From positions 8,642-72,641 of the forward strand of contig CAJIYM010000004.1 in NCBI GenBank assembly GCA_905181635.1: a DNA stretch of 64,000 nucleotides. Direction: 5' to 3'. Position numbers and translations under genes: made by a program. Positions 1,153-48,471 of the stretch are shown here, one piece after another. The stretch comes from an uncultured Flavobacteriales bacterium (GTDB lineage: Bacteria; Bacteroidota; Bacteroidia; Flavobacteriales; BACL11). The number at the start of each line of letters is the position of its first letter. The stretch's first letter is position 1. The notes under the pieces were generated by a model. That model ran no database searches, was not told where the DNA came from, and worked only from the letters and a program-made list of their open reading frames with translations.

Positions 1153-3975
1153 TTACAATTCACTTTTTAGGTATTTAGCAGTATAACTATCCTTACAATT
1201 TATGATACTTTCTGGTGTTCCATTACAAATTACCTGCCCTCCTTTATCCCCACCTTCTTTACCTATATCAATAATGTGGTCTGCCATTTTAATTACATCT
1301 AAATTATGTTCAATAATCAATACTGTATTTCCTTTATCTACTATAGTATCAATTACTTTTAGAAAGATCTTTACATCTTCAAAATGTAGCCCTGTAGTTG
1401 GTTCATCCAAAATATAAAAAGTGTTTCCTGTACTTCTTTTAGAAAGCTCAGATGCTAATTTGATTCTTTGTGCTTCCCCTCCACTTAAAGTTGTTGCTGA
1501 TTGACCTAAAGAAATGTAGCCCAGACCAACATCTTGCAAGGTTTTTATTTTTCTATAAATAGATGGAATAGCCTCAAAAAATTTAACTGCTTGATTAATG
1601 GTTAAATCCAATACATCAGAAATTGAATTTCCTTTAAAGCGAACTTCTAAAGTTTCACGATTATAGCGTTTTCCATTACAATCTTCACAATGCACCTCAA
1701 CATCAGGCAAAAAGTTCATTTCTATAGTTTTCATTCCACCCCCTCTACAACCTTCACACCTACCACCAACAACATTAAACGAAAAACGTCCAACTTTATA
1801 TCCTCTAACTTTAGATTCTGGAAGATTCGAAAACAAAGCTCTAATATCAGAAAAAACACCAGTATAAGTAGCTGGATTAGACCTTGGAGTACGACCAATA
1901 GCGGATTGATCTACCTCAATAACCTTATCCAAATGGGCTAAACCATCAATACTTTTATAAGGCAAAGGCTCTTTTTCACCTCTATAAAAATGTTTATTTA
2001 AAATAGGGTATAAAGTTCCATTTATTAAAGTTGACTTTCCACTTCCTGAAACTCCAGTCACACAACACATCAAACCCAAAGGAATTTCAATATCAATATT
2101 TTTTAAGTTATTTCCTCTAGCTCCTGTTATGGTTAATTTTTTTCCATTCCCTTTCCTTCTGTTCTTTGGTACTTCAATTTTTTGAATACCATTTAAATAT
2201 TCAGCAGTAATATGATTATCATTTAGAATAGTTTGATAATCTCCTTCAGAAACCACTTGTCCTCCATGAACTCCAGCCCCAGGACCTAAGTCAACAATAA
2301 AATCAGCTGACTTAATCATATCTTTATCATGCTCAACAACAATAACTGAGTTTCCAATATCTCGTAATTTTTTTAAAGAATTTATCAATTTTAAATTATC
2401 CCTTTGATGTAACCCAATGCTAGGTTCATCTAATATATAGAGAACATTTGTTAGTTGAGTTCCAATTTGAGTTGCTAAACGAATTCTTTGGGCCTCTCCA
2501 CCACTTAACGTTTTTGAACTTCTATTTAACGAAAGATAGGATAATCCCACATCAATAATAAATTGCAGGCGCTTAGTTAATTCTTTAACAATCTGATTTG
2601 CAATTTTTAATTCATTCTCATTTAATGATTTTTCAATAGTAAGTACCCACTTAGAAAAAGAAATAACATCCATGTTTGACACTTCATTAATGCTTTTATC
2701 AGAAACTTTAAAATGAGACGACTCAATATTTAGCCTACTCCCATTGCAGCTTTTACAATCGTGTTCAGACATGTATTTACCTGCCCACTTTTCAATAGAT
2801 TTTACAGAAGACAATTTAGATTGCTCATCTATAAAATTAACAATTCCACCAAAATGTAATTTGTAAGTCTTAGAAATTCCTGCTGACTTTAATTTTACTT
2901 TAAGATTTTCAGTAAGCCCATATAATATTGCATCAATTCCTTGCTTTGGAATTTTATCAATAGGTGTATTTAAAGTGAAATTAAACTTCTTTCCAATCAA
3001 TTCAATTTGACCTAATATCCAATCTGATTTACGATTTGAAATAGGAGCGATTCCCCCATTATTAATGCTTAAATATTTATTTGGTAATATTTTATCTTCA
3101 TCAACAATCTTAAATTTTCCTAATCCATTACATTCCCTACATGCACCTTTTGGAGAATTAAAAGAAAAAGAATTTGGCTCTGGATTTTTATAAGCAATTC
3201 CTGTTTCAGGGCACATTAAAGCCCTTGAAAAATACCTTGGCGTTGTAGATGAATTTTCAATAACCATCATTACACCATCACCATCCTCCATTGCTAGTCT
3301 CAAAGAGGAAATTAGACGTTTTTTGTTTGGATCAGTTACTTTTAAGCGATCAATAACGACTTCAATATCATGTGTTTTATATCTATCTAACTTTAGAGAA
3401 GGAGTTATTTCAATAATTTCACCATCAACTCTTACTTTTAAATATCCTTTTTTAGCTAACTGATGAAAAAGTTCGGCATAATGTCCCTTTCGTGAACGAA
3501 CAATAGGAGACAAAACATTAATAGATTTATTCTTAAAATCTAATTGTATTAAATCTAAAATCTGCTCATCAGTAAAGCGCACCATTTTTTTTCCTGATTT
3601 ATGAGAATAAGCAGTACCTACTCTAGCATAGAGCAGTCGTAAATAATCATAAATTTCAGTAATTGTACCTACTGTAGATCTTGGATTCTTGGTTGTAGTT
3701 TTCTGCTCAATTGCTACAACAGGACTCAGTCCTGTAATCTTATCTACTTCTGGGCGCTCCATATTTCCTAGAAATTGACGAGCGTAAGCATTAAAGGTTT
3801 CTAAGTACCTTCTTTGTCCTTCTGCATGAATGGTGTCAAAAGCTAATGATGATTTTCCACTTCCACTCTTACCAGTAAAAACGACTAGTTTATTCCTAGG
3901 AATTTGAAGATTAATGTTTTTTAGATTATGAACTCGTGCACCATAAATTGATATCTTATCTTTTTGATTTACCAT
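1153..3975 (-). CDS. uvrA: Excinuclease ABC subunit A
   Basis: Two ABC ATPase modules (GKSGSGKSSL and GVSGSGKSTL), LSGGEAQR signatures twice, and zinc-finger Cys clusters. The likely true start is MVNQKDKISIYGARVHNLKNI at 3975; the track start at 4014 would overlap the upstream gene. Confidence 0.95.
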   Translation of the reverse strand: MVNQKDKISIYGARVHNLKNINLQIPRNKLVVFTGKSGSGKSSLAFDTIHAEGQRRYLETFNAYARQFLGNMERPEVDKITGLSPVVAIEQKTTTKNPRSTVGTITEIYDYLRLLYARVGTAYSHKSGKKMVRFTDEQILDLIQLDFKNKSINVLSPIVRSRKGHYAELFHQLAKKGYLKVRVDGEIIEITPSLKLDRYKTHDIEVVIDRLKVTDPNKKRLISSLRLAMEDGDGVMMVIENSSTTPRYFSRALMCPETGIAYKNPEPNSFSFNSPKGACRECNGLGKFKIVDEDKILPNKYLSINNGGIAPISNRKSDWILGQIELIGKKFNFTLNTPIDKIPKQGIDAILYGLTENLKVKLKSAGISKTYKLHFGGIVNFIDEQSKLSSVKSIEKWAGKYMSEHDCKSCNGSRLNIESSHFKVSDKSINEVSNMDVISFSKWVLTIEKSLNENELKIANQIVKELTKRLQFIIDVGLSYLSLNRSSKTLSGGEAQRIRLATQIGTQLTNVLYILDEPSIGLHQRDNLKLINSLKKLRDIGNSVIVVEHDKDMIKSADFIVDLGPGAGVHGGQVVSEGDYQTILNDNHITAEYLNGIQKIEVPKNRRKGNGKKLTITGARGNNLKNIDIEIPLGLMCCVTGVSGSGKSTLINGTLYPILNKHFYRGEKEPLPYKSIDGLAHLDKVIEVDQSAIGRTPRSNPATYTGVFSDIRALFSNLPESKVRGYKVGRFSFNVVGGRCEGCRGGGMKTIEMNFLPDVEVHCEDCNGKRYNRETLEVRFKGNSISDVLDLTINQAVKFFEAIPSIYRKIKTLQDVGLGYISLGQSATTLSGGEAQRIKLASELSKRSTGNTFYILDEPTTGLHFEDVKIFLKVIDTIVDKGNTVLIIEHNLDVIKMADHIIDIGKEGGDKGGQVICNGTPESIINCKDSYTAKYLKSEL

Positions 3976-13347: not shown

Positions 13348-13377
13348 TGTATAGATTTTAAATAAATAATCTATACA
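13348..13377. promoter_or_regulatory. Palindromic operator site A: TGTATAGA-N14-TCTATACA. The right half overlaps a -7 box TACATTTG (13374..13381).
   Basis: Read directly: ttTGTATAGAttttaaataaataaTCTATACAtttgc. The same 8-14-8 architecture recurs at 17237, 25574 and 30603. Confidence 0.7.
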
Positions 13378-13403
13378 TTTGCAAGCTAACCAGTAAAAAA
13401 ATT

Positions 13404-13574
13404 ATGAAAGAGTTTATTGCAATATATTATCCAATAATTTTAGCATTCATTTGTATGTTATACTCAATTGGTTTCCACATATTTGATATGCCTGAAGAAG
13501 CACAGTACTCTGCACACTGGCCAGGAACAATTCTATTATTTGCAATTGCTATTAGACAAAGAAGAAAATCATGA
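13404..13574 (+). CDS. Micro-ORF encoding a 56-aa two-helix membrane peptide
   Basis: MKEFIAIYYPIILAFICMLYSIGFHIFDMPEEAQYSAHWPGTILLFAIAIRQRRKS. The ATG lies 22 nt after the -7 box, and the stop overlaps the next ATG (ATGA). Not in the supplied track (below its size cutoff). Confidence 0.3.
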   Translation: MKEFIAIYYPIILAFICMLYSIGFHIFDMPEEAQYSAHWPGTILLFAIAIRQRRKS

Positions 13575-13708
13575 ATTCAGGAATGCTTATAGTTGGTTTT
13601 ATTATTTTCTCAGTATATATATTTGGACTCATATATATGATAAACTACTCTCATAAATCTCAAGAGAAAGATATGAAAGATGATCCTGAATTAAAAAATT
13701 TAAAATAA
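13571..13708 (+). CDS. Micro-ORF encoding a 45-aa single-TM peptide
   Basis: MNSGMLIVGFIIFSVYIFGLIYMINYSHKSQEKDMKDDPELKNLK. Translationally coupled to the previous micro-ORF, and ends 19 nt before the glycosylase gene. Confidence 0.3.
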   Translation: MNSGMLIVGFIIFSVYIFGLIYMINYSHKSQEKDMKDDPELKNLK

Positions 13709-13727: not shown

Positions 13728-14525
13728 ATGCCAGAAGGACCAGAAGTAAAAATAGCTTCAGATTATTTTAACGAATTCTTTTCAGCAAGTAAAAAAATAG
13801 AATTTGAGATTATTTCTGAATATTATGATCAAAAATACTTTACTGTTTTCAAAACAATTAGCAAATTACTTAGAACACCCAAACCAACTTTTACAGTAGG
13901 AAAAAATATATTCCTTGATCTGGGAAACAATCTAATATTTAATTTCCATTTAGGCATGACTGGAGGTTGGTCAAATGAGTTGGTTAAACATTGTCACTTT
14001 CGTGTTTTTGACTCTAATAATGAACTATATTTTAAAGATGTAAGAAAGTTTGGTAATATGAAGATCATAACACAAAATCAATTTAATGAAAAATTTAATC
14101 CTGATTATGATCTTCTCAATAAATCATATTGTTTAAAAAGTCATTTAGATTATTTAGAAGAAAATATTAGAGCCAAAAAAACGATTTGCTCATTAATTAT
14201 GGATCAAAAATATTTTCCAGGCGTCGGTAATTACATTAAATCTGAAAGCTTATATATATCAAAAATACACCCTGAAGAAAAATGGGGTAACCTCAATAAA
14301 GATAAAATAACTAGATTAATAAGCAATACACAAAAAGTAATGAAGGATAGCTACAAATCTGGAGGCGCAGAGCTAAAGGATTTTAAAAATCCTTTTAATC
14401 CATCCAAATTTAGATTGCAAATTTATGGCAAGAAATATACTGAACAAAATAACATAGTAACATCTGAGAAAACTTCTGACTCTAGAAAGACTTGGTTTTG
14501 TTCTAAACAACAGAAATTAATTTAA
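13728..14525 (+). CDS. Fpg/Nei-family DNA glycosylase/AP lyase with a degenerate (zinc-less) C-terminal finger
   Basis: Catalytic N-terminus MPEGPEV, and an H2TH region (PGVGNYIKSESLYISKIHP). The C-terminus, YGKKYTEQNNIVTSEKTSDSRKTWFCSKQQK, keeps only one of the four Cys of the canonical CxxC...CxxC finger. Confidence 0.85.
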   Translation: MPEGPEVKIASDYFNEFFSASKKIEFEIISEYYDQKYFTVFKTISKLLRTPKPTFTVGKNIFLDLGNNLIFNFHLGMTGGWSNELVKHCHFRVFDSNNELYFKDVRKFGNMKIITQNQFNEKFNPDYDLLNKSYCLKSHLDYLEENIRAKKTICSLIMDQKYFPGVGNYIKSESLYISKIHPEEKWGNLNKDKITRLISNTQKVMKDSYKSGGAELKDFKNPFNPSKFRLQIYGKKYTEQNNIVTSEKTSDSRKTWFCSKQQKLI

Positions 14526-14676: not shown

Positions 14677-15288
14677 ATGAAAATATATAAAATACTTCTG
14701 ATTGCTCTATTATTAAATAATACTTCATTATTAGCACAAAAATATCCAACAATTAACATTGGGGAACAAATGCCTATGCAAAAAATAGAAATATTTGACA
14801 CAAATGAAAAGAGCAGAACACTTAATAACAGCCTAAAAAACAATGGTCTTTTAGTAGTATTTACTTCCAACTCTTGTCCTTTTGTAGTAATGTGGGAAGA
14901 TAGGTATAAGTTACTTGAAGAAAAATGCAGGGATAGTGAAATAGGAATGGTTTATATAAACTCAAATCAAGCTAAAAGAAATGGAGATGATTCAGTTGAA
15001 AAAATGAAAAATCATTCAAAGGAAATGGGGTATACTTTCCCATATTTAATAGATAAAAATAGTGAGATAGCAAATGCCTTTGGAGCCAAAACAACTCCAC
15101 ACATATTTTTGTTTAACAAAGGGAAAAAATTGGTATACAAAGGAGCTATAGATGATAATTATAAGTCAGCTAATGAAGTTACTGAAAACTATTTATTAGA
15201 TGCATTAGAGAACGCCGGTAATCAACTAGCGATTAGCATTAAAGAAACTAAAGCCGTAGGATGCAGCATAAAGAGGGTTAGAAAATAA
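14677..15288 (+). CDS. Exported thioredoxin-fold (redoxin/TlpA-like) protein
   Basis: Signal peptide, a thioredoxin-fold core with an active-site-like SNSCPFV, and TTPHIFLF (cis-Pro region). Confidence 0.7.
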   Translation: MKIYKILLIALLLNNTSLLAQKYPTINIGEQMPMQKIEIFDTNEKSRTLNNSLKNNGLLVVFTSNSCPFVVMWEDRYKLLEEKCRDSEIGMVYINSNQAKRNGDDSVEKMKNHSKEMGYTFPYLIDKNSEIANAFGAKTTPHIFLFNKGKKLVYKGAIDDNYKSANEVTENYLLDALENAGNQLAISIKETKAVGCSIKRVRK

Positions 15289-15484: not shown

Positions 15485-16381
15485 TTATTTTCTATTATAA
15501 AAATTAGTCATTATTATTGCGTGAGGTAAGGTTATAACTGAGATACCAATTATTGAGAAAAGAAATACTGATATATTAATAAACCCAAGGTTCATTAATA
15601 ATAAGAAAACTACCAAAAATATAATTGAAAGTAAAGTATGAGGATATAATAGTTTAATAAAATTAAGCATATTTAGATCAGACTGTAAAGATTTCAAGTA
15701 ATCAAACTCTTGTTTTAGAACTTTAATTGAATGAAGAAAAATAAAGTATAATGTAAAGCTGATAATTATTGGAAATAAATAAAAAGTAATATGAATTAAG
15801 ATCAACAGAAATATTTCATTCATTAACTGCTGATTAGAAATACTTAATTTATAATTTTCAAAAAATAACAGATAAATTATTATTAAATTACTAAAATAAA
15901 AAATATACTTAAAAATTGAAACATTAAATACTTGACTAAAATTTTTAGTATCTATAAACTGATTTGATAGTAACAGTAATTCATTATTATTATAAAAAAT
16001 TAAAGTTGAAAGCAACGCAAATCCCCAAATCAAATAAATAATTCTTTTTTTATTTACAAAAGGATAATCTACTAGCTGTGATTCACCAAAATGGTAAGAC
16101 GACAAGAATAAAAAGAAAATAAGTGATATAACTGGCGTTATCCACCAGAACAAACAGTAAATAATTATAGTTACTAAATATATTAAATAAAATCTAAATC
16201 TTGTGATCTTGTTAGATGATAAGTAAATAATATTATCAATTGCTCCGTGAGGAATACCAAAAAGAGAAATTAAAATTATAGAACCTAAAACTTGACTCTG
16301 CATGCTAATCTCACCATTTAATGTGAAAATTGCAAAAAGAGCATAAACAAATATGAGATATGTGAATGTAAATTTATTCAA
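15485..16381 (-). CDS. blh: Beta-carotene 15,15'-dioxygenase, Brp/Blh family (retinal synthesis)
   Basis: Polytopic membrane protein with conserved His-containing segments GIPHGAID, SSYHFGESQ, FLHSIKV and LPHAII. It lies immediately downstream of the rhodopsin gene. The track start is TTG at 16379-16381, which overlaps the T-tract of the rhodopsin terminator. An alternative ATG is at 16303 (MQSQVLG). Confidence 0.85.
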   Translation of the reverse strand: MNKFTFTYLIFVYALFAIFTLNGEISMQSQVLGSIILISLFGIPHGAIDNIIYLSSNKITRFRFYLIYLVTIIIYCLFWWITPVISLIFFLFLSSYHFGESQLVDYPFVNKKRIIYLIWGFALLSTLIFYNNNELLLLSNQFIDTKNFSQVFNVSIFKYIFYFSNLIIIYLLFFENYKLSISNQQLMNEIFLLILIHITFYLFPIIISFTLYFIFLHSIKVLKQEFDYLKSLQSDLNMLNFIKLLYPHTLLSIIFLVVFLLLMNLGFINISVFLFSIIGISVITLPHAIIMTNFYNRK

Positions 16382-16409
16382 AAAAAAAAGGGCAGGATTT
16401 CTCCTGCCC
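16380..16409 (-). terminator. Intrinsic terminator between proteorhodopsin and blh
   Basis: The minus strand reads GGGCAGGA-GAAA-TCCTGCCC followed by about 10 T. It lies 22 nt after the rhodopsin stop. Confidence 0.8.
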
Positions 16410-16430
16410 TATTTCTTTAAATTAAAATAA

Positions 16431-17162
16431 CTAAGCTACTTTTTTATTTGATTCAGCTATAGCGATAGAATAAACCACTAATCCAAATCCTATTTTGTTG
16501 ATTGCATCAGCAATGTTATACCATACATCAACACTTTCTGGTGCCATAACACTACTTAACCATCCACCTTCCATACACATGTATCCAATTGGATAGATTG
16601 ACCATCCTACTAATACAAACCAAGCTAAATATTTAACGCCTTTCTTAATAGCATCAGAATTACTTTTTTCAGCTAATTGAGCAACCTCACCAAACCATAC
16701 AGTGTACGCTATGTATAAATAACCAATAGTTGAAAGTACTCCCCATGTTACAGAATGACCAGTAGTTCCATCTGAGAATGCCTCTCCAATATATCCACAA
16801 ACTAACATCCAAGTTGAAGCAAGAATTAACTTCCATAATAGACTTTTCTTAGCTCCAGCCAGTTTAGTAAGTAAGTAAAACTCAACACACATCAATGGAA
16901 CCGTTAAGATCCAATCTACATATCTGAAGAAAGTTGGAGAAGTTTCAGTTGCTAACCAATAGTCTCTCATGTAATAATAGTGTACAGCAGCTATTCCCGT
17001 AATTAGAGCTGATACTAGTAAAGACATTTTCCATTTGTCGTCAACACTTCCTCTTTCAACAAAAAAGAATACAGATGCTGCTAACATTGCAATATAACCT
17101 ATGAAGAATGTGAAAGCCACATAATTGTCTGGTGCGATTGCTGTAATAACATTTAATAACAT
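16431..17162 (-). CDS. Proteorhodopsin, DTE-motif outward proton pump with Met at the spectral-tuning position 105
   Basis: RYVDWILTVPLMCVEFYLL gives D97/T101/E108 with M105. The Schiff-base lysine sits in YNIADAINKIGFGL. Seven TM helices. A -7 box TAGATTTG lies at 17190..17197. Confidence 0.95.
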   Translation of the reverse strand: MLLNVITAIAPDNYVAFTFFIGYIAMLAASVFFFVERGSVDDKWKMSLLVSALITGIAAVHYYYMRDYWLATETSPTFFRYVDWILTVPLMCVEFYLLTKLAGAKKSLLWKLILASTWMLVCGYIGEAFSDGTTGHSVTWGVLSTIGYLYIAYTVWFGEVAQLAEKSNSDAIKKGVKYLAWFVLVGWSIYPIGYMCMEGGWLSSVMAPESVDVWYNIADAINKIGFGLVVYSIAIAESNKKVA

Positions 17163-17236
17163 TTTTTTATTTTTTTAATTAATATTCAGCAAATCTAATA
17201 AAAATAATTGAAATCATGTAATTAAATTTTTTATTT

Positions 17237-17266
17237 TGTATAATTTTTTATTCATAAATCTATACA
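17237..17266. promoter_or_regulatory. Palindromic operator site B upstream of proteorhodopsin: TGTATAAT-N14-TCTATACA
   Basis: ttTGTATAATtttttattcataaaTCTATACAttt. It lies 75-104 nt upstream of the rhodopsin ATG and 39 nt upstream of the -7 box. Confidence 0.6.
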
Positions 17267-17353
17267 TTTATTAAATAATTATATGTATCTAATATATTGT
17301 GAGGGTATGATGCTATTTAAGAAATATTACACTAAAAAATGAGCGATTTTCAT

Positions 17354-19204
17354 TTATTCAATAATTACCTTCCTTTCTACCGATCCATCATCATAGATGT
17401 AAAAAAGAGATTGATCTCTTAAAATTGTATTTATTGTCACTTCCCTCCCAAGTACATCAACAATACGAATCAATTGTCGGTTTTGACTAAAATTGTATTC
17501 TTCTATTAATAAAGGACTTACACAAAGCTGTTCGAAAAAAAGCCATGCTTCTCGGCTGGCAGAAACATCCATATTACCATAAGCTCCAGGCCAATCGTGA
17601 CCACCACCGTCTACCGAATAAAGCCACACCTGAGTGCAAGAACCAGATTCTGTGTGTTTATCAGAATTTACTGAACTTCCATCTGTTGGGTCAATGTCTG
17701 GAAATGCATTTGAATTTAATTCAGTTAATCCAAACATATCTGTAAAAAAACTAATTGTATTAGGAATACTTGGATACGCTCCCCAACCTCCATTGTTGTT
17801 GGGGTCGCCCTGCCAATATGTTACATTGTCTTGATTTCCATGAATTTCAAGTATGGACACCTCTTTAACTGGATTACAATTATCCATAATATCTTGCATA
17901 ATCATACCAGCTACGGGAGCAATAGCCTTAAATGTTTCAGAAGCCTGACAAGCTAACATATAACTAAAGTCACCACCATTTGACATTCCTGTACTAAAAA
18001 TATCTTGTTCACTCAGAGAATACATAGCTTGAAGTGAATCTACCAGATCCTCTATGAAAGCAACATCATCTACTGTTTGATTGTTCTGAAAATCATAACC
18101 AACATTAAAAAAAGTATTATTTGAACCATCTAGTGTACCTTGAGGATAACACACGGCAAATCCAAATTCTTCAGCTAGCGAATTAAATTGAGAGTAATCC
18201 ATAATGCCTTGTGCAGTACCACTGTATCCATGAAAAACTAATACTAATGGACAATTAGGCGAAGCAGAACTAGCATGGTAATAAATATAGTCCCTATTGC
18301 CAAATGTTGAGTAATCAACAGCTTCAATTTGGGTAGATATACTATCGTTTGTTGAATTAAAATCGTTAATCAAACCATTAACGCTACTAATAACAATTTC
18401 AAGTGTCTGTAAACCAGACGCATTAAAAGTAAGGATATCAGGATGAGAAAAATTATAAGTACCCAAAGAAGGAATTGATAAAGAATTAAAACTGGTAGTG
18501 TAAACATTTGCACCGATAGTCCAAGAAGCATCGAAGGACTGAATGATATTTAAACCTGTGTTTGTAACAGTACCTTCAATTACATATGGGGTTTGAATAT
18601 CAATAGTAGAGTTAATTGTATGTGAGCTAAGCTCCAAATCAGTACCCTCTAATTCAAATACTAATACATCATCAATCCCCCAGCCAAACAACCAATTATT
18701 GTCATCAAAATAATGAAACGCTAATAAAACATTTACATTTCCTACTAGTGAGTTTAGACTTATTGTTTGAGTATCCCATAAGCCATCATCAGTACCAATA
18801 ATTGTTTGAAGTAAATTCCATGAAACACCATTATCCAGTGAATATTCTAATGTAGCTACTTCTGTACCCCCATTTAATGATCCTGCATCAAAATAACTTT
18901 GAAATTGAAGTACAGCAGATGTCAGGGTAGTTAAATCGAAAGGTGGCATAATAAGATAATCAATCGTTTTATCACAATCACATTCATCATCATTGGTAGC
19001 AATAAATCTACCATGCGCTCCTATACTCCAATATTGGCTTTGCAACAAAGTGTTAGTACCCAATAACCAACCTCCATCTAAAGAATTTGTAGTTTGTGTC
19101 CAACCTGAGGGAAAAGTAAGTCCTTCAAAATCTTCCTCTAAAAGAATGGTTTGACCGAGCCCAAGTAATGGTAACCAAAGTAATGTAAAAAGTAATTTTT
19201 TCAT
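17354..19204 (-). CDS. T9SS-secreted esterase (PHB-depolymerase/feruloyl-esterase-like alpha/beta hydrolase) with an N-terminal choice-of-anchor-J-like domain
   Basis: Signal peptide, an N-terminal EEDFEG...FPSGWT module, LVFHGYSGTAQG, the nucleophile elbow GMSNGG, and a C-terminal sorting-domain-like tail (VDVLGREV...FYIYDDGSVERKVIIE). Confidence 0.7.
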   Translation of the reverse strand: MKKLLFTLLWLPLLGLGQTILLEEDFEGLTFPSGWTQTTNSLDGGWLLGTNTLLQSQYWSIGAHGRFIATNDDECDCDKTIDYLIMPPFDLTTLTSAVLQFQSYFDAGSLNGGTEVATLEYSLDNGVSWNLLQTIIGTDDGLWDTQTISLNSLVGNVNVLLAFHYFDDNNWLFGWGIDDVLVFELEGTDLELSSHTINSTIDIQTPYVIEGTVTNTGLNIIQSFDASWTIGANVYTTSFNSLSIPSLGTYNFSHPDILTFNASGLQTLEIVISSVNGLINDFNSTNDSISTQIEAVDYSTFGNRDYIYYHASSASPNCPLVLVFHGYSGTAQGIMDYSQFNSLAEEFGFAVCYPQGTLDGSNNTFFNVGYDFQNNQTVDDVAFIEDLVDSLQAMYSLSEQDIFSTGMSNGGDFSYMLACQASETFKAIAPVAGMIMQDIMDNCNPVKEVSILEIHGNQDNVTYWQGDPNNNGGWGAYPSIPNTISFFTDMFGLTELNSNAFPDIDPTDGSSVNSDKHTESGSCTQVWLYSVDGGGHDWPGAYGNMDVSASREAWLFFEQLCVSPLLIEEYNFSQNRQLIRIVDVLGREVTINTILRDQSLFYIYDDGSVERKVIIE

Positions 19205-20558: not shown

Positions 20559-22596
20559 TTATTTAATATATTTTATTAGCATCTTGGGTAGATATATTAT
20601 ATCAAATATTAAGGCTATGATGGCTGCTAAAATAGTTATTATTGATAATTGACTAATAGATTTGAATTCAGAAAATAATAATGGCAACAAAGTAAATATA
20701 ATTACTATGGATGTTTTAATTACAGCCTTGTAAGTGTAATTTTGACAATGCGATACAGAGTCTGCAATACTTAAACCCCTATTTCTAGAGAGGCTATAAG
20801 CGTTAATAATATGTATTGAATCATCAACAATTAAACCAAAAACAATAGCTAATATAAATGCATTAGAAAGACTAAAATAAAAACCGAAAACTGATAGAAT
20901 ACCTATAGTAGTTAGTAATGGAAGAATATTAGGAATTAAGGAAATTGGAAAATAGTACCAATTAAAATTATTTAATGACACAAACACTATTCCAATTATC
21001 ATGATTGCAAGTAATAAACCAAAAATAATTTCAAAAGTCATTTTATTGCTGATTTTATCAAAGAGAAATCCAACTCCAGCAATCTCTAAATCTAATTGCA
21101 AGTCTTTAGATTTCATTAGTATATCATCAAAAATAATCTTTGATTTACTTGACCCAATATCTTGCATTCTGGCCTTAATTGTGTACTGACTACTATTTGA
21201 GTTTTGGCTAATTTTCTTTGACAAAAAATCTGAAGAAAAATCAATAACTAAATTATGACTAAGTATTATGTTTTCTAGAGAATCTAAATTATCTCTTGAT
21301 GGATCGTTCATTAATAATAAAAGTAACTGGCTTTATACCACCAAATTCTTTATCAAAAAAACTAATATCTTTATATAGATTAGACTTTTTATTAATCTCA
21401 TCAGTAAGGAAATTATCAACTCTAAAATTAGTAAAGGCTAAAGATGAAAGAAATATAAATGATGCTAATAGTATATAAAACTGAGATTTTTTAATATTAA
21501 TAAATGACAATATTAAATCGTCTAAAAATTTGTTGTTTCTAATATTCTTATTGATATTAAATTCGATAATAAATGAATATAAAACTACAATTACAATAAG
21601 AGATATAAAAATTGTAATAGTAGTAATTACACCGAACCTAAACAAAGGGACTAATGATGAGAACATAAAACTCAAAAAACCTATAGCAGTTGTTAAGGAA
21701 GTAATAAAAACTGGCATGCCTATCTTTTCTAATTGACACTTAAAGGATCTAAATTTATTTTTATATAATTTATCAGAATTCAATAGATGCATAAAATCAG
21801 AAATAGTAATAATAAAAACTATAGCTGGTATAAGAATCATTACTAATTCAATACCCCCAAATAATTTATTAGAAAGAGTGAAAGAAAGAATTAATGAGAT
21901 ACAAACTGATATGAAATTTATTAATACTAATTTAAAATTATTTAAATAAAAATATAAAACTAAACTACATAAAACACTACTTAAGATAATAAATAACATC
22001 AACTCTTTAGTCACATTATCCTGCATATAAATTTCAGATTTAGTCTGACCAGTAATGTATACCTTTAATTTATCTTTAGAGAATTCTTGTGCTAATTTAT
22101 CTAAGTATAATCTTTTTTGCGAATCAGTTTCTAGACTCTTCGATTTAATAATAAATAAAAATGAGCTGAGGTCTTTTGTTGCATATTTAGTTCCGTACTT
22201 TCTTATTTTAGTTATTGAGGATTTATAATTTTTAAAATTATCAATTTTTAAAACTTTAAGAGCAAATGGAATAACACTTTTTTTGATCAATATCCTCTCA
22301 TTAAAAATACTTCTAACAGAAGCTGTATTTTTATCTTTTGAAATATTATTTGAAATAATAGATAAATCTAATAGATCTTGGTAACCGATAGAGTCTTTAA
22401 ATTCAACAGCTAGCAAAATTAGATTTTTATCATCTAAAGATTTATCAATAATATCCTTACTCTCCTTCGACAATTCAATAATTCGTTCACTATCATAAAA
22501 AATTTTTAAACCACTTATATTAGTTAGTGATAAGACAAACATCAATAATATTAACGAAAGTAAAAGGTACTTATATTTCCATATTAATTTTATCAC
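20559..22596 (-). pseudogene. MMPL/RND-superfamily exporter split by a +1 frameshift (track ORFs 21289..22596 and 20559..21311)
   Basis: ORF1 reads TM1, a periplasmic loop, 5 TM, TM7 and the start of loop 2. ORF2 reads the rest of loop 2 and 5 TM (GLIVDDSIHI). The two overlap by 23 nt in frames offset by +1, so the second periplasmic loop is cut in the middle. Confidence 0.65.
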
Positions 22597-25367: not shown

Positions 25368-25547
25368 TTATGAAATAAAATTATACTCAGCAGTAGGGTA
25401 CATGTCCAACCATTTTTTAAGCTGCACTTTAGTTTTTAAAGTTACAGTCATAGTTTTAGTTTTAAAAATAATTTTTGGAGAATTATTTTTAATTTTGTCT
25501 AATATTTTTTCAGCCTTCCTTTTTTTCATTAATCTGTAATCGCTCAT
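25368..25547 (-). CDS. Small basic protein (59 aa), hypothetical
   Basis: MSDYRLMKKRKAEKILDKIKNNSPKIIFKTKTMTVTLKTKVQLKKWLDMYPTAEYNFIS. The ATG at 25545-25547 lies 22 nt after a minus-strand -7 box TACATTTG (25570..25577), the same box and spacing as at site A. Confidence 0.35.
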   Translation of the reverse strand: MSDYRLMKKRKAEKILDKIKNNSPKIIFKTKTMTVTLKTKVQLKKWLDMYPTAEYNFIS

Positions 25548-25573
25548 AACTTTAATTTTAAATATTGTGCAAA

Positions 25574-25603
25574 TGTATAAGTTTTTTAATAAAAAGCTAT
25601 ACA
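25574..25603. promoter_or_regulatory. Palindromic operator site D: TGTATAAG-N14-GCTATACA in a divergent promoter region
   Basis: aaTGTATAAGttttttaataaaaaGCTATACAaa. The left half overlaps the minus-strand -7 box. The right half ends 16 nt before the plus-strand -7 box TAATTTTG (25620..25627). Confidence 0.55.
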
Positions 25604-25635
25604 AAACAAAATTATTAATTAATTTTGCACAAATT

Positions 25636-26028
25636 ATGATGATGAAAAAACCAGACAATGTAGTATTTGATATCCAATTACAGGAGTATGATTCTTACAA
25701 AAAAAATTATCCAACAGATTTAGGTAGTCCAGCATTTGACAGTTCAGTGTTAAAGAAAGATAACTTTGCATTTAAGCATTTAAAAGCTAAATTTGATGAA
25801 CTTAATTCAGAGTACAAACAGCTGTTAACTAAATTAAAATGGAATGAGTTAATCTATAATTCAGAGCATAATTTCACCCCTATTGCTGGTGAAGCATATC
25901 ACTTATACAAAAACAAAAACACTACATTCCTTAGTATCATAGAGCCAAACCAATGGGAAATGGAGCACATAGGTTCATTCAAATTATTGGCAAATGATAT
26001 CTGGGAACAGATAAAAAATAAAAAATGA
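25636..26028 (+). CDS. Conserved hypothetical protein (possibly DUF2452-like)
   Basis: Start chosen at MMMKKPDNVV (ATG 25636), downstream of the -7 box; the track start at 25567 lies inside the operator/promoter. The stop overlaps the next gene start (ATGA). Confidence 0.55.
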   Translation: MMMKKPDNVVFDIQLQEYDSYKKNYPTDLGSPAFDSSVLKKDNFAFKHLKAKFDELNSEYKQLLTKLKWNELIYNSEHNFTPIAGEAYHLYKNKNTTFLSIIEPNQWEMEHIGSFKLLANDIWEQIKNKK

Positions 26029-27143
26029 AAATATTCACAATAATAACGCTAATAATACTGCTACTTTTTTTTACAAAAAACCTCTTCTCTGTAGTTGAAA
26101 AAGAAAACTATACAATTATTAAAAAAATAGAGGATATTGAAATTAGGCAATATAAAAGCTCAATTTATGCCAGTTATATTCCAAAAAATGAAAAAGAAAG
26201 AACTAATTCGTTTAAAAAAGTAGCATCTTTTATTTTTGGTGATAACACAAGCAGTGAAAAAATTAGTATGACATCACCTGTAGTTATAAAAATCCATAAT
26301 GATTACGAAATGGCATTTTTAATGCCTGAACAATACAGCTTAGAAAACTTACCAAAACCTGTCAACAAAGAAATAAACATTTACACTGAACCAGGATCTT
26401 TAAAGGCTTGCATTAAGTACTCTGGATACACAAATAGTTCAGTCGAAAACAGAAAGATAAATGAGCTAAAAAAAATACTATTAAAATATAACTACAATCA
26501 TGAAAATGATTTTGAAGTTTTAGTATATAATTCTCCTTTTGATTTTTTAAACCGAAGAAACGAAATAACTGTAACAATTAACATGGATATAAAAAGTAAA
26601 GAAAATATTTCATCAATAAAGAACATCTATTTTGGAGGAGGATGTTTCTGGTGCACCGAAGCTGTATTTGAACAAGTTAAAGGCGTTGAAATTGTAGCAA
26701 GCGGATATTCAGGAGGCAAGATTAAAAATCCATCTTACAAAGAAGTATCAAAAGGCTTAACTAGTCATGCTGAAGTTTGTAAAATATCATATGATGAAAA
26801 CATAATAAAATTAAACGAACTAGTTGAGATCTTCTTTTACTACCATGACCCCACAACCTTAAATAGACAGGGCAATGATCATGGAGCACATTACAGATCA
26901 ATAATACTTTATAATAATGATGATGAAGAAAATATAATTAATACAGTCAAAAATAAAATTAACGAAGAAAAATATGACGGTAAAATTATTACAGAAATAA
27001 AAGAATTTTCCAATTTTTACTACGCTGAGGAGTTACATCAAAACTATTTTAAAGAAAATTCATCTCAGCCATACTGCGAAATAGTTATCTCACCCAAAGT
27101 AAGTAAGGTTAGATCAGAACTAAATAAATATTTCAAGAATTAA
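26025..27143 (+). CDS. msrA: Fusion protein: N-terminal TM/signal anchor, SOUL heme-binding-like domain, and peptide-methionine (S)-S-oxide reductase MsrA
   Basis: SOUL-like motifs FIFGDN...ISMTSPV, MAFLMP and RRNEITV in residues about 25-190. The MsrA catalytic motif GGGCFWCTEAVF and the rest of MsrA occupy the C-terminal half. Confidence 0.85.
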   Translation: MKIFTIITLIILLLFFTKNLFSVVEKENYTIIKKIEDIEIRQYKSSIYASYIPKNEKERTNSFKKVASFIFGDNTSSEKISMTSPVVIKIHNDYEMAFLMPEQYSLENLPKPVNKEINIYTEPGSLKACIKYSGYTNSSVENRKINELKKILLKYNYNHENDFEVLVYNSPFDFLNRRNEITVTINMDIKSKENISSIKNIYFGGGCFWCTEAVFEQVKGVEIVASGYSGGKIKNPSYKEVSKGLTSHAEVCKISYDENIIKLNELVEIFFYYHDPTTLNRQGNDHGAHYRSIILYNNDDEENIINTVKNKINEEKYDGKIITEIKEFSNFYYAEELHQNYFKENSSQPYCEIVISPKVSKVRSELNKYFKN

Positions 27144-29692: not shown

Positions 29693-30574
29693 TTATTTAG
29701 ATATAAGGTTAATAAAACTATTTACATCAGTAAAAATATTTACACTGCTTTTTTTGACAATCATCTTAGAAGTCATCTCTGATGATATAATATATTTATT
29801 TGCAGATTGAAAATTAGATTCAAGATATTCAACTGTAGAATTAATGTTAATTATTGACGAGTTTGAGACTGCAAACATTAGAGTATTATTAATTTTTATT
29901 TTATCATCTACTTGATTTAATGACCCATAAGGAAGGTTTGAACCAAGATAAATAACGTTAAATCCATTTTTTACTAATAAAAACCTAGCAAATAGAAGAC
30001 CTATTTCATGAAACTCATTTTCAGGCAGAAACAATAACCATGTGTCTCTAGTATTCTCTTTTTTAAAATAAATATCACTAGCAACAATTAACTTTTGTTT
30101 AATGTTTTCAGAAAGAAAATGTTCTTGAGAAGGAGCCATCCTGTTAGTTAACCAAAGAATACCTATCCTATCTAAGGTAATTAGAATGACTTTTTTATAA
30201 AAATCAAGAATGCCAAAATCTGAAACACCATCTTCAAACAATTTATTAAATTTAGATGTGCTAAATTCTAATGTTGAGATAATTATTTGACTAATGTAAT
30301 AGCTTTCCCTTCCTTTTGTCTGCTTAACTTTTATCTCATCAACTATTTTAAATAAATCAATCTTAGAAATCCTAGAAATCTTAGAAATCTTATATCCATT
30401 TTCCAATAAATAATTAGTATTTAAAGCTCTAACAATCATATCGTCAGTATAGATCCTGATATTTGTTTCAGATCTATTTGCTTTTAAATAATCATAACGA
30501 TTCTCCCAGGTTCTTAAAACAAATTTTGTTATACCTGTAATGCTTGAAAATTGATCAATACTATACTGTCCCAT
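29693..30574 (-). CDS. CarH/LitR-type MerR regulator with an adenosylcobalamin-binding photosensor domain
   Basis: N-terminal MerR HTH (YSIDQFSSITGITKFVLRTWENRY). Both CarH signatures are present in the C-terminal half: Wx9EH (WLTNRMAPSQEH) and the lower-axial-ligand motif ExHxxG (EFHEIG), followed by a Rossmann-like GFNVIYLGSNLP. A -7 box TACTTTTG lies at 30588..30595. Confidence 0.85.
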   Translation of the reverse strand: MGQYSIDQFSSITGITKFVLRTWENRYDYLKANRSETNIRIYTDDMIVRALNTNYLLENGYKISKISRISKIDLFKIVDEIKVKQTKGRESYYISQIIISTLEFSTSKFNKLFEDGVSDFGILDFYKKVILITLDRIGILWLTNRMAPSQEHFLSENIKQKLIVASDIYFKKENTRDTWLLFLPENEFHEIGLLFARFLLVKNGFNVIYLGSNLPYGSLNQVDDKIKINNTLMFAVSNSSIININSTVEYLESNFQSANKYIISSEMTSKMIVKKSSVNIFTDVNSFINLISK

Positions 30575-30602
30575 AAAAAAATTTTAACAAAAGTACAAAA
30601 AT

Positions 30603-30632
30603 TGTATAGAATAATATTAAAACATCTATACA
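30603..30632. promoter_or_regulatory. Palindromic operator site C in the carH/crtI divergent promoter: TGTATAGA-N14-TCTATACA
   Basis: atTGTATAGAataatattaaaacaTCTATACAttc. The left half is 7 nt (30596..30602) from the carH -7 box. The crtI -7 box TAAATTTG is at 30664..30671. Confidence 0.7.
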
Positions 30633-30696
30633 TTCTTAACTAGACAATAACAAAAAATTTATATAAATTTGCAAAAAAATTAATTCCAAATAAATT

Positions 30697-32163
30697 TTGA
30701 AAAAAGTTATAGTAATAGGTAGTGGCTTTGCTGGTTTGAGCTCAGCAGCGTATCTTTCAAAAGAAGGTTTTGATGTTACTATTATAGAAAAAAATAAGGA
30801 AATTGGGGGCCGTGCTAGAAACTTTAAGGCTAAGGGATACACATTTGATATGGGTCCAAGCTGGTATTGGATGCCAGAAATTTTTGATAATTTCTTTAAT
30901 AGTTTTAATTACAAAACAAAGGATTTTTATGAACTAATAAAATTAAATCCTGGCTTTAAAGTTGTATTTGATAATTCAGATATGGCCCTTCCTGCTAATT
31001 GGAGTGAAATATGTGATTTATTTGATAAATATGAAGTAAACGGCGCGAGGAAATTAAACAATTTCATGGAAGATGCAGAAAAAAAATATAGTATAGGTCT
31101 TAGATTTTTATATAATTCTCCCGGGCTTTCTATTACTGAATTACTAAAAAAAGATGTGTTATTTAATGCAAATAAATTGCAATTACTTACTTCTTACAGA
31201 AAACATATTAAAAGACATTTTAAAGACCCTAAATTGATCAGCTTACTTGAGTTTCCAGTTCTATTTTTAGGAACATCAGCAGAGAGCGCTCCGGCTCTAT
31301 ACAGTCTTATGGCATATTCTGGTCTTAAACAAGGTACTTTTTATCCAATGGGAGGCTTTGCTAAAGTCATTGAGAGTATGGCAGAAATATGTAAAAATTA
31401 TGGAGTTAAATTTTTACTAGAAGAGCAAGTAATTAAAATCAATATATCTAACAAAATAGTAAAATCTATTACAACTGAAAAACAAGAGATACGAACTGAC
31501 TTTGTCGTTGGTGCAGCAGATTACGTGCACATTGAATCAAAATTAATTGATAAAAAATACAGAAACTATAATTCTTCATATTGGAAGAAAAGAGAATTTT
31601 CACCATCAGCACTTTTATTTTATCTTGGAGTAAACAAAAAATTAAATAATCTTGAACATCATACATTGTTTTTTGATGAGGACATGGAAAAACTCTCACA
31701 AGAAATTTATGACACCAAAGTTTGGCCTGAAAAACCTCTTTTTTATACATGTTGTCCTGCTAAATCAGAAGAAAATTTAGCACCTAAGGGGAAAGAAAAC
31801 CTTTTCATATTAATGCCAATTTCTGCAGGGCTTGAAGATACCGAAGAGCTTCGTGAAAAGTATTTCCAAATTATTCTTAAAAGACTTGAAAATTACTGTA
31901 AACAAGACATAACATCCAATATTGAATACAAGAAAAGCTATTGCATAAAGAATTTTGAAGAAGATTATTTCGCATACAAAGGAAATGCATATGGTTTAGC
32001 AAATACATTATTACAAACAGCAAACCTAAAACCAAAAATTAAAAACAAGAAGGTTGAAAATCTTTTTTATTGTGGACAATTAACAGTTCCAGGACCTGGA
32101 GTTCCACCTTCAATAATTTCAGGAAAATTAGTAGCAGAACAAATTATTAAAACAAATAAATAA
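30697..32163 (+). CDS. crtI: Phytoene desaturase
   Basis: TTG start. FAD-binding N-terminus KKVIVIGSGFAGLSSA and C-terminal GQLTVPGPGVPPSIISG. Confidence 0.9.
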   Translation: MKKVIVIGSGFAGLSSAAYLSKEGFDVTIIEKNKEIGGRARNFKAKGYTFDMGPSWYWMPEIFDNFFNSFNYKTKDFYELIKLNPGFKVVFDNSDMALPANWSEICDLFDKYEVNGARKLNNFMEDAEKKYSIGLRFLYNSPGLSITELLKKDVLFNANKLQLLTSYRKHIKRHFKDPKLISLLEFPVLFLGTSAESAPALYSLMAYSGLKQGTFYPMGGFAKVIESMAEICKNYGVKFLLEEQVIKINISNKIVKSITTEKQEIRTDFVVGAADYVHIESKLIDKKYRNYNSSYWKKREFSPSALLFYLGVNKKLNNLEHHTLFFDEDMEKLSQEIYDTKVWPEKPLFYTCCPAKSEENLAPKGKENLFILMPISAGLEDTEELREKYFQIILKRLENYCKQDITSNIEYKKSYCIKNFEEDYFAYKGNAYGLANTLLQTANLKPKIKNKKVENLFYCGQLTVPGPGVPPSIISGKLVAEQIIKTNK

Positions 32164-33000
32164 ATGAAAGCTATTTTCGATAAAGTCTCGAATGATTGCA
32201 GTGAAATAACTACCAAATCTTACAGTACAAGTTTTTCATTAGGAATTAAAATATTAGACAAAAGCTTACACAATCCAATTTATGGAATTTACGGTTTTGT
32301 TAGATTTGCAGATGAAATTGTGGATTCATTTCATAATTACAATAAAAAAGAACTATTCAAGAAATATAAAAGTGATACTTATTTAGGGATCAAGAATAAA
32401 ATAAGTTTAAATCCAATTATTAATAGTTTTCAAGAAGTAGTTAATAAATTTAAAATTGATCACTCATTAATAGAGTTATTTCTAGATAGCATGGAAATGG
32501 ACTTAGAGGAACAGCATTACGATGAAAATACTTACAAAAAATATATATTAGGATCGGCAGAAGTAGTTGGGTTAATGTGTTTAACCATTTTTGTTAAAGG
32601 AGATAAAAACCAATACAAGAAGCTTAAGCCATATGCAATGAAACTTGGATCAGCTTTTCAAAAAATAAATTTTTTAAGAGACGTAAATGATGACTTCAAT
32701 GAACTAGGAAGAACTTATTTTCCAGAAGTTAATATGTCAAATTTCAATGATACAGACAAGCTGAAAATTGAAAATGAAATTGAAAATGAATTTACCGAAG
32801 GTTTAAAAGGGATAACGATGTTACCAAACACATCAAAAGGAGGCGTTTACTTAGCTTATAAATATTATTATAATTTATTCAAAAAGATAAAAAGAATACC
32901 TGCTAATAAAATTTTAGAAAAACGGACTAGAATTTCTAATCCTAGAAAATTTATTATATTATTATCATCAATGTTAAGTTATCATTTGAAAAAAATATGA
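32164..33000 (+). CDS. crtB: Phytoene synthase
   Basis: Squalene/phytoene synthase motifs YGFVRFADEIVD and AFQKINFLRDVNDD. Starts 1 nt after the crtI stop. Confidence 0.9.
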   Translation: MKAIFDKVSNDCSEITTKSYSTSFSLGIKILDKSLHNPIYGIYGFVRFADEIVDSFHNYNKKELFKKYKSDTYLGIKNKISLNPIINSFQEVVNKFKIDHSLIELFLDSMEMDLEEQHYDENTYKKYILGSAEVVGLMCLTIFVKGDKNQYKKLKPYAMKLGSAFQKINFLRDVNDDFNELGRTYFPEVNMSNFNDTDKLKIENEIENEFTEGLKGITMLPNTSKGGVYLAYKYYYNLFKKIKRIPANKILEKRTRISNPRKFIILLSSMLSYHLKKI

Positions 33001-33455
33001 AGTTAACTAATATTATCATATTATTAGTATTTGTATTCACTTGTAAAGCTCAGACAAATAATCTAGATACGATAAGAAAAGAATACTTAGAAACAATTCA
33101 GAGTGAAGCAAGAATTATCCAATTACTAAATACATGTGAGAAATATAAAGATAATTCAACTATCTCTGCATACAAAACTGTAGCTAAACTGATGCTAATA
33201 GAGTATGACAATAATCCTTTAACGAAGCTTAAATTATTCACTAAATACACTAAAAAACTTGATTCTATTGTCACAAATAACATAAATAATTTAGAAATAC
33301 GCTTTCTAAGATTTTGCACACAAAAACAAACACCAAGATTTTTGGGATACAACGATAATTTAGAATTAGATTATAAATTTATTATACAGAATATTGACAT
33401 TCAATCTAAAGAACTGCAAGAATATATCAATCCAGCATTAAAAAAACTTAAATAA
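32997..33455 (+). CDS. Hypothetical exported helical protein co-transcribed with crtIB
   Basis: Signal peptide MKLTNIIILLVFVFTCKAQ. The ATG overlaps the crtB stop (ATGA). I recognise no motif. Confidence 0.55.
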   Translation: MKLTNIIILLVFVFTCKAQTNNLDTIRKEYLETIQSEARIIQLLNTCEKYKDNSTISAYKTVAKLMLIEYDNNPLTKLKLFTKYTKKLDSIVTNNINNLEIRFLRFCTQKQTPRFLGYNDNLELDYKFIIQNIDIQSKELQEYINPALKKLK

Positions 33456-44765: not shown

Positions 44766-45209
44766 TTATTTTTTTGGAATAAATAAAATACTTAAAGAAT
44801 TGACGCAATGCCGAATATTTTTATCTGTCAATCCTTCTCCTTCAAAAATATGACCAAGATGTCCTTTACAATTAGAACAACATATTTCAACACGCTTCAT
44901 TCCCAAACTATAATCCTGCTTTCTAGTTATAGCCTCATCGATTTCATCATCAAATGATGGCCAACCACAATTAGATTTAAACTTTGAATCTGAATTAAAC
45001 AATGGATTATTACACGCCTTACACACATAAATCCCCCTAGCAGTATTGGCTAGATAATCACCTGACCATGCCCTCTCAGTGCCTTTTTTAACAATAATTT
45101 CTCTTTCCTTTGGAGTAAGATCTTCAAAATAATTAGCAGTTTTAATCTCTTTTTCTTGAGCTAATAAAGTAAATGGTAGAAAAATTAATACATTTAATAT
45201 ATTTTTCAT
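44766..45209 (-). CDS. msrB: Peptide-methionine (R)-S-oxide reductase MsrB carrying an N-terminal signal peptide
   Basis: Zinc-site pairs CKAC and CSNC, GWPSF, HLGHIF, and the catalytic RHCVNS. N-terminus MKNILNVLIFLPFTLLAQEKE. Confidence 0.9.
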   Translation of the reverse strand: MKNILNVLIFLPFTLLAQEKEIKTANYFEDLTPKEREIIVKKGTERAWSGDYLANTARGIYVCKACNNPLFNSDSKFKSNCGWPSFDDEIDEAITRKQDYSLGMKRVEICCSNCKGHLGHIFEGEGLTDKNIRHCVNSLSILFIPKK

Positions 45210-47522: not shown

Positions 47523-48471
47523 TTATTGTAGAATTAATTTCTTATTAACCACACCATTATTAGTTGTGATTTCTAAGAAGTAAACTCCTTTAGTATAAGT
47601 AGCTAAATCAATTGCTTTAGTGTACTCACCAATAAACTGCTCTAAGCTTTCAGTGTATACAACCTCACCAACAACATTAAGCACTCTAACTTCAAGATCT
47701 TGTACATCCTCTGACGTAAACGCCACATTAAATACATCTCTTGATGGGTTAGGGTAAACATCTAAGTTAGCAATTGCACTTCCTCCCTCAAGTCTTACAG
47801 TAGTTGGTTGTGTCCAGAAAAGTAATGAAGTCCATTGTGGTGACTTATAAGCTCCACCATTTGGATCACACCATGATCTAGATTGTCCTCTATATGATGT
47901 ACCTGGACTAAGATTATTCTTATCCTTAGTATATACACCATAAGCAACTCCCATACCACCTACATTAAACCAAGTAGAACCAGTAACATCAACTCTTGCT
48001 TTAATTCTCATAAAGCTATAAGCTCCATTTGAATCATCCCAAGTAAAGGTAGCTTGTGTAGTAGAACCTGAACTTACTGTCAAGTTACCTACATTTGGAC
48101 AGTCATCTAATGTAGTGAATGTTTCCATTGTACTCCAATCACTAGAACCGCCACCACAATACCAAGCTTTCATTTGATATTCATAATCTGAAGATGGAAG
48201 CAAGTTTAAAATCAACTTCTCAATCTTTTGATTACCAATACCATTTGAATTACATGAATTTACTGGACCACCCATAGTTTTCTGATCGAAAGCACTTGTT
48301 CCAATCACTCTATACTTAATACGGTATTGATCTACCATACATGTAGCACTATTCATATTATCCCAGTTGATTGTAGCTCTGTTCTGGATAACATCTGTAG
48401 TATTTAAACCAGTAGGTGCATCTTCTACACATACACTAATTACTATAAGATTCACACATGAACCATCATCA
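47523..48471 (-). CDS. C-terminal segment of the giant surface protein (after the frameshift): FN3-like domains and a T9SS sorting domain
   Basis: In the +1 frame the sequence continues ...DDGSCVNLIV, then APTGLNTTDVIQNRATINWD (FN3-like, twice), then the sorting domain VYPNPSRDVFNV...GVYFLEITTNNGVVNKKLILQ. Confidence 0.8.

Follow-up and report, generated by a model that had tools for sequence, protein, structure and literature searches.

A palindrome upstream of the proteorhodopsin gene of a flavobacterium as a predicted operator of a CarH/LitR-type B12 photoreceptor

In the CarH/LitR family of vitamin B12 photoreceptors, the oligomer bound to adenosylcobalamin (AdoCbl) blocks a sigma-A promoter in the dark and light releases it (PMC9304148). 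The characterised CarH recognition element is TnnACA, and characterised CarH operators consist of three or four tandem 11-bp direct repeats, nnnnTnnACAn, that overlap the promoter (PMC9304148). At the Pcrt promoter of Myxococcus xanthus, the CarA/CarH operator is built of inverted repeats, with a perfect repeat upstream of -35 and a cooperative extension, and covers ~55 bp (PMC9304148). Light induction of proteorhodopsin (PR) in flavobacteria has been reported repeatedly, without a sensor, regulator or cis-element being assigned. Genes that are up in the light in Dokdonia sp. MED134 include those for PR, crtB/crtI, a MerR regulator, methionine sulfoxide reductase and photolyase/cryptochrome (bioRxiv 10.1101/2023.12.25.573297). 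Here we analyse 64,000 nucleotides from an uncultured Flavobacteriales bacterium (assembly GCA_905181635.1, contig CAJIYM010000004.1, positions 8,642 to 72,641 of the forward strand), a stretch that we call the window. A palindrome upstream of its PR gene, at 17237..17266, is probably the operator of an AdoCbl-dependent CarH/LitR-type repressor encoded at 29693..30574. The features central to this prediction are as follows.

17237..17266, no strand assigned: predicted operator B, palindrome TGTATA-N18-TATACA, an exact match scoring 29 bits with the site matrix
16431..17162, minus strand: proteorhodopsin (Pfam Bac_rhodopsin, E 3e-42)
17190..17197, minus strand: putative Bacteroidetes -7 box of PR, TAGATTTG, which fits TAnnTTTG by sequence
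29693..30574, minus strand: CarH/LitR-like regulator of 293 aa, with a MerR helix-turn-helix (HTH) and a B12-binding module (Pfam, phmmer)

Operator B reads TGTATAATTTTTTATTCATAAATCTATACA on the plus strand. It lies in the intergenic region upstream of PR (17163..17353), 75-104 nt 5' of the PR ATG, and the -7 box TAGATTTG is found downstream of it after a gap of 39 nt. The initial annotation described an 8-14-8 element at this place; its coordinates were right, but the core is 6-18-6, TGTATA-N18-TATACA, with positions 7-8 of the palindrome only partly conserved in the weight-matrix analysis. The exact core occurs four times in the window, each time between genes, at 13348 (A), 17237 (B), 25574 (C) and 30603 (D); dinucleotide-preserving shuffles (n=100) gave a mean of 0.03 copies and a maximum of 1. 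Scored with a symmetrised weight matrix, the four sites reach 24-33 bits, and the next-best position in the window, at 10.9 bits, falls within the shuffle range. The spacers of the window sites are also symmetric, T-rich/A-rich. The right flank of site B had been called identical to that of site A, which is true if A is the site at 13348 (TCTATACATTTG); the flank of the carotenoid site D reads TCTATACATTC and shares 10 of 11 bases with that of B. A hybrid site with one mismatch, at 15110..15139, was rejected as a chance match: it lies inside an AhpC-like gene and its 10.9 bits are within shuffle noise.

By its sequence, the protein encoded at 29693..30574 is a CarH/LitR-family AdoCbl photoreceptor. 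The N-terminus matches Pfam MerR_1 (E 5e-13, residues 4-69), the match to Pfam B12-binding_2 scores 22.7 bits, slightly below the 23-bit cut-off, and residues 2-235 align with Thermus thermophilus CarH (5C8D) and LitR (3WHP) with E ~1e-10 (phmmer). Two motifs mark the cofactor site in this family: W-x9-E-H sits over the upper face of AdoCbl and E-x-H-x-x-G holds the His ligand. The window regulator has both, as WLTNRMAPSQEH (W-x9-EH) and EFHEIG, aligned with the T. thermophilus CarH motifs. Among 28 homologues, down to 28% identity, the E, H and H are invariant and the W is present in at least 90%. The recognition helix reads ITKFVLRTWENRY and is of what we term the RTWENRY type.

A metagenome scan with CarH homologues of another helix type, KAHT[IL]R[IM]WE, yielded 80 loci. 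In the flanks of carH, 74 kb in total, these loci hold 68 exact palindromes with N18/19 spacers, against 5 in the remaining 709 kb; all but one of the flanking sites (67) are of the TGTTTA type, beside regulators of the KAHT[IL]R[IM]WE type. Often two tandem TGTTTA copies, 35, 44 or 63 nt apart, stand between carH and a gene for an extracytoplasmic function (ECF) sigma factor, which is followed by crtI-crtB. TGTATA-type sites are found beside carH in all six RTWENRY-type lineages examined, namely the window and P0192, P0241, P0246, P0248 and P0250, whose regulators are 81%, 54%, 39%, 39% and 36% identical to that of the window. Locus L161 by itself holds three exact TGTATA-type copies within 12 kb, each of them in a promoter region between genes. 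Across these sequences, operator type tracks the recognition helix of the regulator, RTWENRY with TGTATA and KAHT with TGTTTA, and this covariation is the strongest in-silico evidence available that this protein would bind this site. The PR site has the sequence marks of a member of the CarH regulon: it carries the motif of the regulator's own promoter, is conserved at orthologous promoters and covaries with the regulator. The proposal of the initial annotation that the PR promoter has the same operator as the carotenoid locus is supported by the four exact copies, site D among them, by the clustering at carH and by the HTH covariation.

Absence of the element from the PR promoters of relatives had been named as grounds for giving up this proposal. 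We looked for it in the PR loci of relatives, and it is present. Eighty PR loci, with 10 kb on each side, were fetched with the PR alignment from a one-genome-per-species set of Bacteroidota; the counts below are based on 78 of them. Relatives with 72-95% PR identity (L001, L002, L005, L006, L007 and L009) have TGTATA-N18-TATACA with at most one mismatch, starting 64-83 nt before the ATG, and PR loci of Flavobacteriales, Cytophagales, Hymenobacter and Saprospiraceae have TGTTTA-N18/19-TAAACA in the corresponding place; the majority of the other Bacteroidota PR loci carry the site in this TGTTTA form. The exact pattern TGTWTA-N18/19-TAWACA gives 40 matches no more than 250 nt upstream of PR (19.3 kb), in 38 of the 78 loci, against 3 matches in the remaining 1.26 Mb of these loci and 0.08 in shuffled upstream sequences. 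With one mismatch allowed, 54 of the 78 have the site within the same distance. Cultured organisms that carry it upstream of PR are Lacihabitans lacunae, Belliella alkalica, Hymenobacter spp., Thermaurantimonas aggregans and Algoriphagus spp.

Conservation was also seen among strains. Ten contigs that encode an identical PR protein present three upstream haplotypes of one species. In the most diverged of these, most of the sequence 5' of the element has been replaced and the spacer has changed, but neither arm differs and the -7 box is still 39 nt away. The -7 box of PR keeps its TA and TTTG among the strains, while the two middle bases vary (GA, AG, GG). The gap from operator to -7 box at PR is 8 nt in L005, ~15 nt in L176, 16 nt in L002 and 18 nt in L001, and in L009 the two overlap. 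A gap of 8-18 nt, or overlap, is classical repressor geometry. PR thus seems to have belonged to the regulon ancestrally, the 39-nt arrangement being a local variant. In PR loci of Cytophagales and Hymenobacter, only 2-10 nt separate the end of the palindrome from the ATG, so that it must stand at or after the transcription start; this fits an operator better than a fixed promoter element.

The palindrome might instead be functional but read by another dimeric regulator, or it might be the promoter recognised by a light-responsive ECF sigma factor, such as the one encoded between carH and crtI in many Flavobacteriaceae. In L081 (11004..11097), and similarly in L082-L160, two tandem copies lie directly 5' of the ECF sigma gene, a typical autoregulatory position, and most TGTTTA-type PR loci have no TAnnTTTG box after the palindrome. 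Where the palindrome abuts the ATG, in Cytophagales, a TTGAAACA-like box is found upstream; a conserved box of this kind, 12-16 nt upstream of a palindrome that ends 2-10 nt before the ATG, and with no TAnnTTTG box, occurs in L012-L014, L018, L023, L025, L029, L032, L037, L052 and L063. PR may thus use a different, perhaps ECF-type, promoter in Cytophagales, Hymenobacter and some others. As to the palindrome itself, promoters are directional, whereas this element is truly palindromic with a symmetric spacer, and it stands anywhere from 2 to over 100 nt from the start codon. The window operators have separate -7 boxes, and a Pfam search of the window ORFs of at least 100 aa detected no ECF sigma gene; none adjoins the operators. 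The motif type, moreover, tracks the HTH subgroup of CarH. We consider an ECF promoter or another regulator unlikely.

The arms of the element vary in a pattern that could also be read in terms of RNA. A relative with 96% PR identity (L176) carries the symmetric variant TGCATA-N18-TATGCA at 1921..1950, and L001 and L002 have half-changed arms, TGTATA...TATGCA. This series resembles a wobble pair followed by a compensatory change, as might be seen in a hairpin in the PR leader, and the palindrome is able to fold; symmetric changes in the arms are, however, equally expected for the site of a dimeric protein. The predicted PR hairpin is weak (-3.8 kcal/mol), and no Rfam family was matched, the single hit being a chance snoRNA match (E 0.33). 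The window elements lie upstream of the -7 boxes or overlap them, so they would not be transcribed from those boxes. Nor is the element an accidental AT-rich inverted repeat: the palindrome is real, and chance is excluded by the shuffles, the weight matrix and the PR-locus counts. An RNA hairpin or a chance repeat is, in our judgement, very improbable.

Several observations weigh against a CarH operator that acts at PR. Relative to the likely start, the site lies at ~-85 to -55 and overlaps neither the -7 nor the -33 region; as it ends 39 nt upstream of the -7 box, simple occlusion of the promoter is uncertain in this genome. When the whole window was scanned with the weight matrix, no other operator turned up near the PR promoter, and an ATTACA pseudo-repeat 20 nt downstream of operator B was rejected, since it varies among strains. 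Exact-match RNA contigs break off at 17176, within an A/T homopolymer, and do not cover 17177..17373, so they define no start. At the thresholds used, 24 of the 78 PR loci are without the site. The architecture is also not the one described for CarH: it consists of two inverted TnnACA hexamers, 24 bp centre to centre, with an AT-rich spacer of 18-19 bp, and not of tandem repeats, and no conserved internal repeat was found in the window sites. Finally, the TGTTTA-type PR and carH sites come from different genomes, except for L053, where both are on one contig; there PR, blh and carH form one cluster, with carH directly downstream of PR-blh and TGTTCA-N19-TGAACA upstream of PR, a physical linkage that supports the assignment to CarH. 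Since, among the fetched loci, L053 alone has both, same-genome covariation for the TGTTTA type rests on this locus and on population-level agreement.

For a Bacteroidetes sigma-A promoter we looked for a -7 box, TAnnTTTG, with TTTG at -33, ~19-21 nt upstream. The putative PR promoter has the bases of the -7 box, kept among strains, and no TTTG at -33. A scan for sigma-70-type promoters gave nothing usable, that model being uninformative for Bacteroidota.

These features leave room for another view of the site. PR and a DUF2805-photolyase operon are transcribed divergently in L176, with one site common to both. Operator B could be the remnant of such an ancestral divergent promoter, still bound by CarH, with PR largely constitutive or transcribed by read-through. 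The 39-nt gap, as against 8-18 nt in relatives, would fit, as would the plus-strand side of the element, which reads TATACATTTA, one mismatch from the composite of half-site and -7 box seen at sites A and C, with no gene in that direction. Every gene between site C and PR has the orientation of PR, the terminator search showed none behind the esterase gene, and PR is very abundant in four marine metatranscriptomes (assembled contigs). On the other side, conservation of the arms and of the 39-nt spacing over three diverged haplotypes argues for selection. The initial annotation noted that the operator is farther upstream at PR than elsewhere; this stands in comparison with carH (7 nt), the small ORFs of site A (overlap) and DUF2452 (16 nt), but not with crtI, a canonical CarH target, which has a similar gap of 31 nt. 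Distal high-affinity sites are used in the family, as in the upstream inverted repeat of M. xanthus CarA/CarH (PMC9304148). We think it improbable that the site is such a relic, and return to operator B as a CarH target together with the other sites of the window. These, and the genes behind them, are listed below.

13348..13377, no strand assigned: operator A, exact palindrome, overlapping the -7 box TACATTTG (13374..13381)
13404..13574 and 13571..13708: two small membrane-protein ORFs (56 and 45 aa) downstream of operator A
13728..14525: Fpg/Nei DNA glycosylase, after the small ORFs of operator A (Pfam search)
15485..16381, minus strand: blh, beta-carotene 15,15'-dioxygenase, which makes retinal, downstream of PR (Pfam BCD, E 2e-42)
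16389..16410, minus strand: intrinsic-terminator-like hairpin with T run (9 bp, 6 GC), between PR stop and blh start
25368..25547, minus strand: ORF for a 59-aa basic protein (MSDYRLMKKRKAEK...), its -7 box TACATTTG (25570..25577) overlapping a half-site of operator C
25574..25603, no strand assigned: operator C, exact palindrome in a divergent promoter region
25637 (ATG), plus strand: DUF2452 gene, its -7 box TAATTTTG (25620..25627) 16 nt from operator C
26025..27143, plus strand: SOUL/MsrA (methionine-sulfoxide-reductase) fusion, behind DUF2452
30588..30595: -7 box of carH, TACTTTTG, 7 nt from operator D
30603..30632, no strand assigned: operator D, exact palindrome, between carH and crtI
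30664..30671: -7 box of crtI, TAAATTTG, 31 nt from operator D
30697..33455, plus strand: crtI, crtB and a 152-aa ORF (possible crtZ; no Pfam match for this ORF), Pfam Amino_oxidase and SQS_PSY

The functions behind the operators are carotenoid synthesis, opsin and retinal synthesis, protein repair and DNA repair. At three of five window promoters (carH, the small ORFs and DUF2452) the operator lies over or next to the -7 or -33 region, which is consistent with repression. The four operators would define one light regulon, made up of carH with crtI-crtB, PR with blh, DUF2452-SOUL/MsrA with the divergent 59-aa gene, and the two small membrane proteins with Fpg/Nei. By analogy with the family, a B12-bound oligomer would sit in the dark on the two inverted TnnACA half-sites and hold off the sigma-A (-7 box) promoters; in the light the cofactor would be photolysed, the oligomer would fall apart and transcription would start. 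The genes for opsin, for the dioxygenase that forms retinal, for carotenoid synthesis and for photo-oxidative repair would then be switched on jointly, and only when light and B12 are both sensed. Binding, the sign of regulation and the dependence on light and B12 are all inferred from family precedent.

Some of the regulon genes recur in other genomes. The 59-aa ORF is conserved, and L165 has the same divergent junction (ORF 15049..15264) with two exact operators. A homologue of the first small membrane ORF (13404..13574), at 2158..2340 of L002, adjoins an exact operator at 2361; the two small membrane-protein ORFs of site A are candidate conserved members of the regulon. In L161 (1150..1598), and also in L162 and L163, genes for GTP cyclohydrolase I and 6-pyruvoyl-tetrahydropterin synthase (PTPS) are co-oriented with crtI-crtB behind an exact operator, which points to pterin/folate synthesis as part of the light regulon in the L161 lineage.

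The order PR then blh is that of most of the 80 fetched PR loci. In marine metatranscriptomes, the depth of the RNA contigs falls from hundreds over PR to ~10-25 over blh, and blh seems to be expressed by partial read-through past the hairpin between the two genes. The RNA contigs of three runs (X4, X12 and X13) leave the genome sequence at 17176 and continue with 7-14 extra T (A in mRNA sense). These extra bases may reflect strain variation of the A-tract, or they may be an artefact of assembly or library; the A-tracts before the PR ATG are longer in L002 and L176.

Three other observations concern genes elsewhere in the window. An MsrB (SelR) gene at 44766..45209 (minus strand) has no detectable operator, unlike the MsrA fusion at 26025..27143. 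An MMPL-family transporter is divided into two overlapping ORFs, 20559..21311 and 21289..22596 (minus strand), and is a single gene of 674-691 aa in L165 and L161; a frameshift, a pseudogene or an error of the assembly could explain the split. A 2853-aa protein with MAM and copper-binding domains (48469..57030, minus strand) overlaps by 74 nt the ORF 47523..48542, which has a type IX secretion sorting tail, and the two may be one gene broken by a frameshift.

According to the initial annotation, the PR promoter had not been linked to any regulator, and the literature agrees: Riedel et al. mention nothing beyond an RpoD consensus for the PR gene of Dokdonia (PMC3587595), and in our full-text search, which left most subscription journals outside its reach, no paper connected a rhodopsin promoter with CarH/LitR or another B12 photoreceptor. 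Light regulons of the CarH type are a known kind of system; the PR-blh target, the inverted-repeat operator and the paired specificities of protein and operator in Bacteroidota appear new. With a specific 30-bp site and a specific protein named, light control of PR becomes testable, also in cultured carriers, and the result points to a way in which many Bacteroidota of sea and fresh water may turn on their light-driven proton pump. If the prediction is correct, photoheterotrophy is tied to B12, a vitamin both scarce and traded in the ocean; opsin, retinal cleavage and carotenoid synthesis are under common control; and a lack of B12 should leave the repressor inactive and the regulon constitutively on. 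CarH biology would also be extended to a further phylum and to a novel arrangement of the operator, with a naturally occurring pair of protein and operator specificities that may be useful for optogenetic tools. A broader proposal, to which we give about an even chance, is that a B12 photoreceptor is the direct and ancestral PR switch in most PR-bearing Bacteroidota (Flavobacteriales, Cytophagales and Chitinophagales/Saprospiraceae). It would act through an undescribed binding mode on inverted TnnACA half-sites 24 bp apart, diverged into at least two matched specificities (RTWENRY/TGTATA and KAHT/TGTTTA), and would tie the expression of PR, retinal and carotenoid genes at sea to exogenous B12 and light.

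Among described systems, CarH (LitR) of T. thermophilus and Bacillus megaterium, AdoCbl-dependent repressors of carotenoid genes, share with the window regulator the order of domains and the motifs Wx9EH and ExHxxG. The half-sites, TATACA or TAAACA, fit the CarH element TnnACA (PMC9304148). As in those systems, the operator is found in the regulator's own promoter region and that of the carotenoid genes, and dark repression relieved by light would be expected here by analogy. Pcrt of M. xanthus offers a precedent for a distal high-affinity site such as those at PR and crtI; in contrast to Pcrt, the matrix scan shows no promoter-proximal second repeat at the window PR promoter. Compared with CarH of Thermus and Bacillus, the predicted regulon is wider, in that it includes PR-blh and repair genes, and it belongs to the phylum Bacteroidota with its -33/-7 promoters. 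In the LitR-LitS system of Streptomyces, the MerR-B12 regulator adjoins an ECF sigma gene and crt genes, a layout similar to the carH, ECF sigma and crtI-crtB order of L081. PhrR of Halomonas is a B12 light regulator whose regulon contains photolyase and folate/pterin genes, to be compared with the GTP cyclohydrolase I and PTPS genes of L161. We know of no rhodopsin target for either LitR-LitS or PhrR. The Dokdonia MED134 data are of expression only, with no cis-element or regulator assigned; the functions induced by light in that flavobacterium are those that carry operators in the window.

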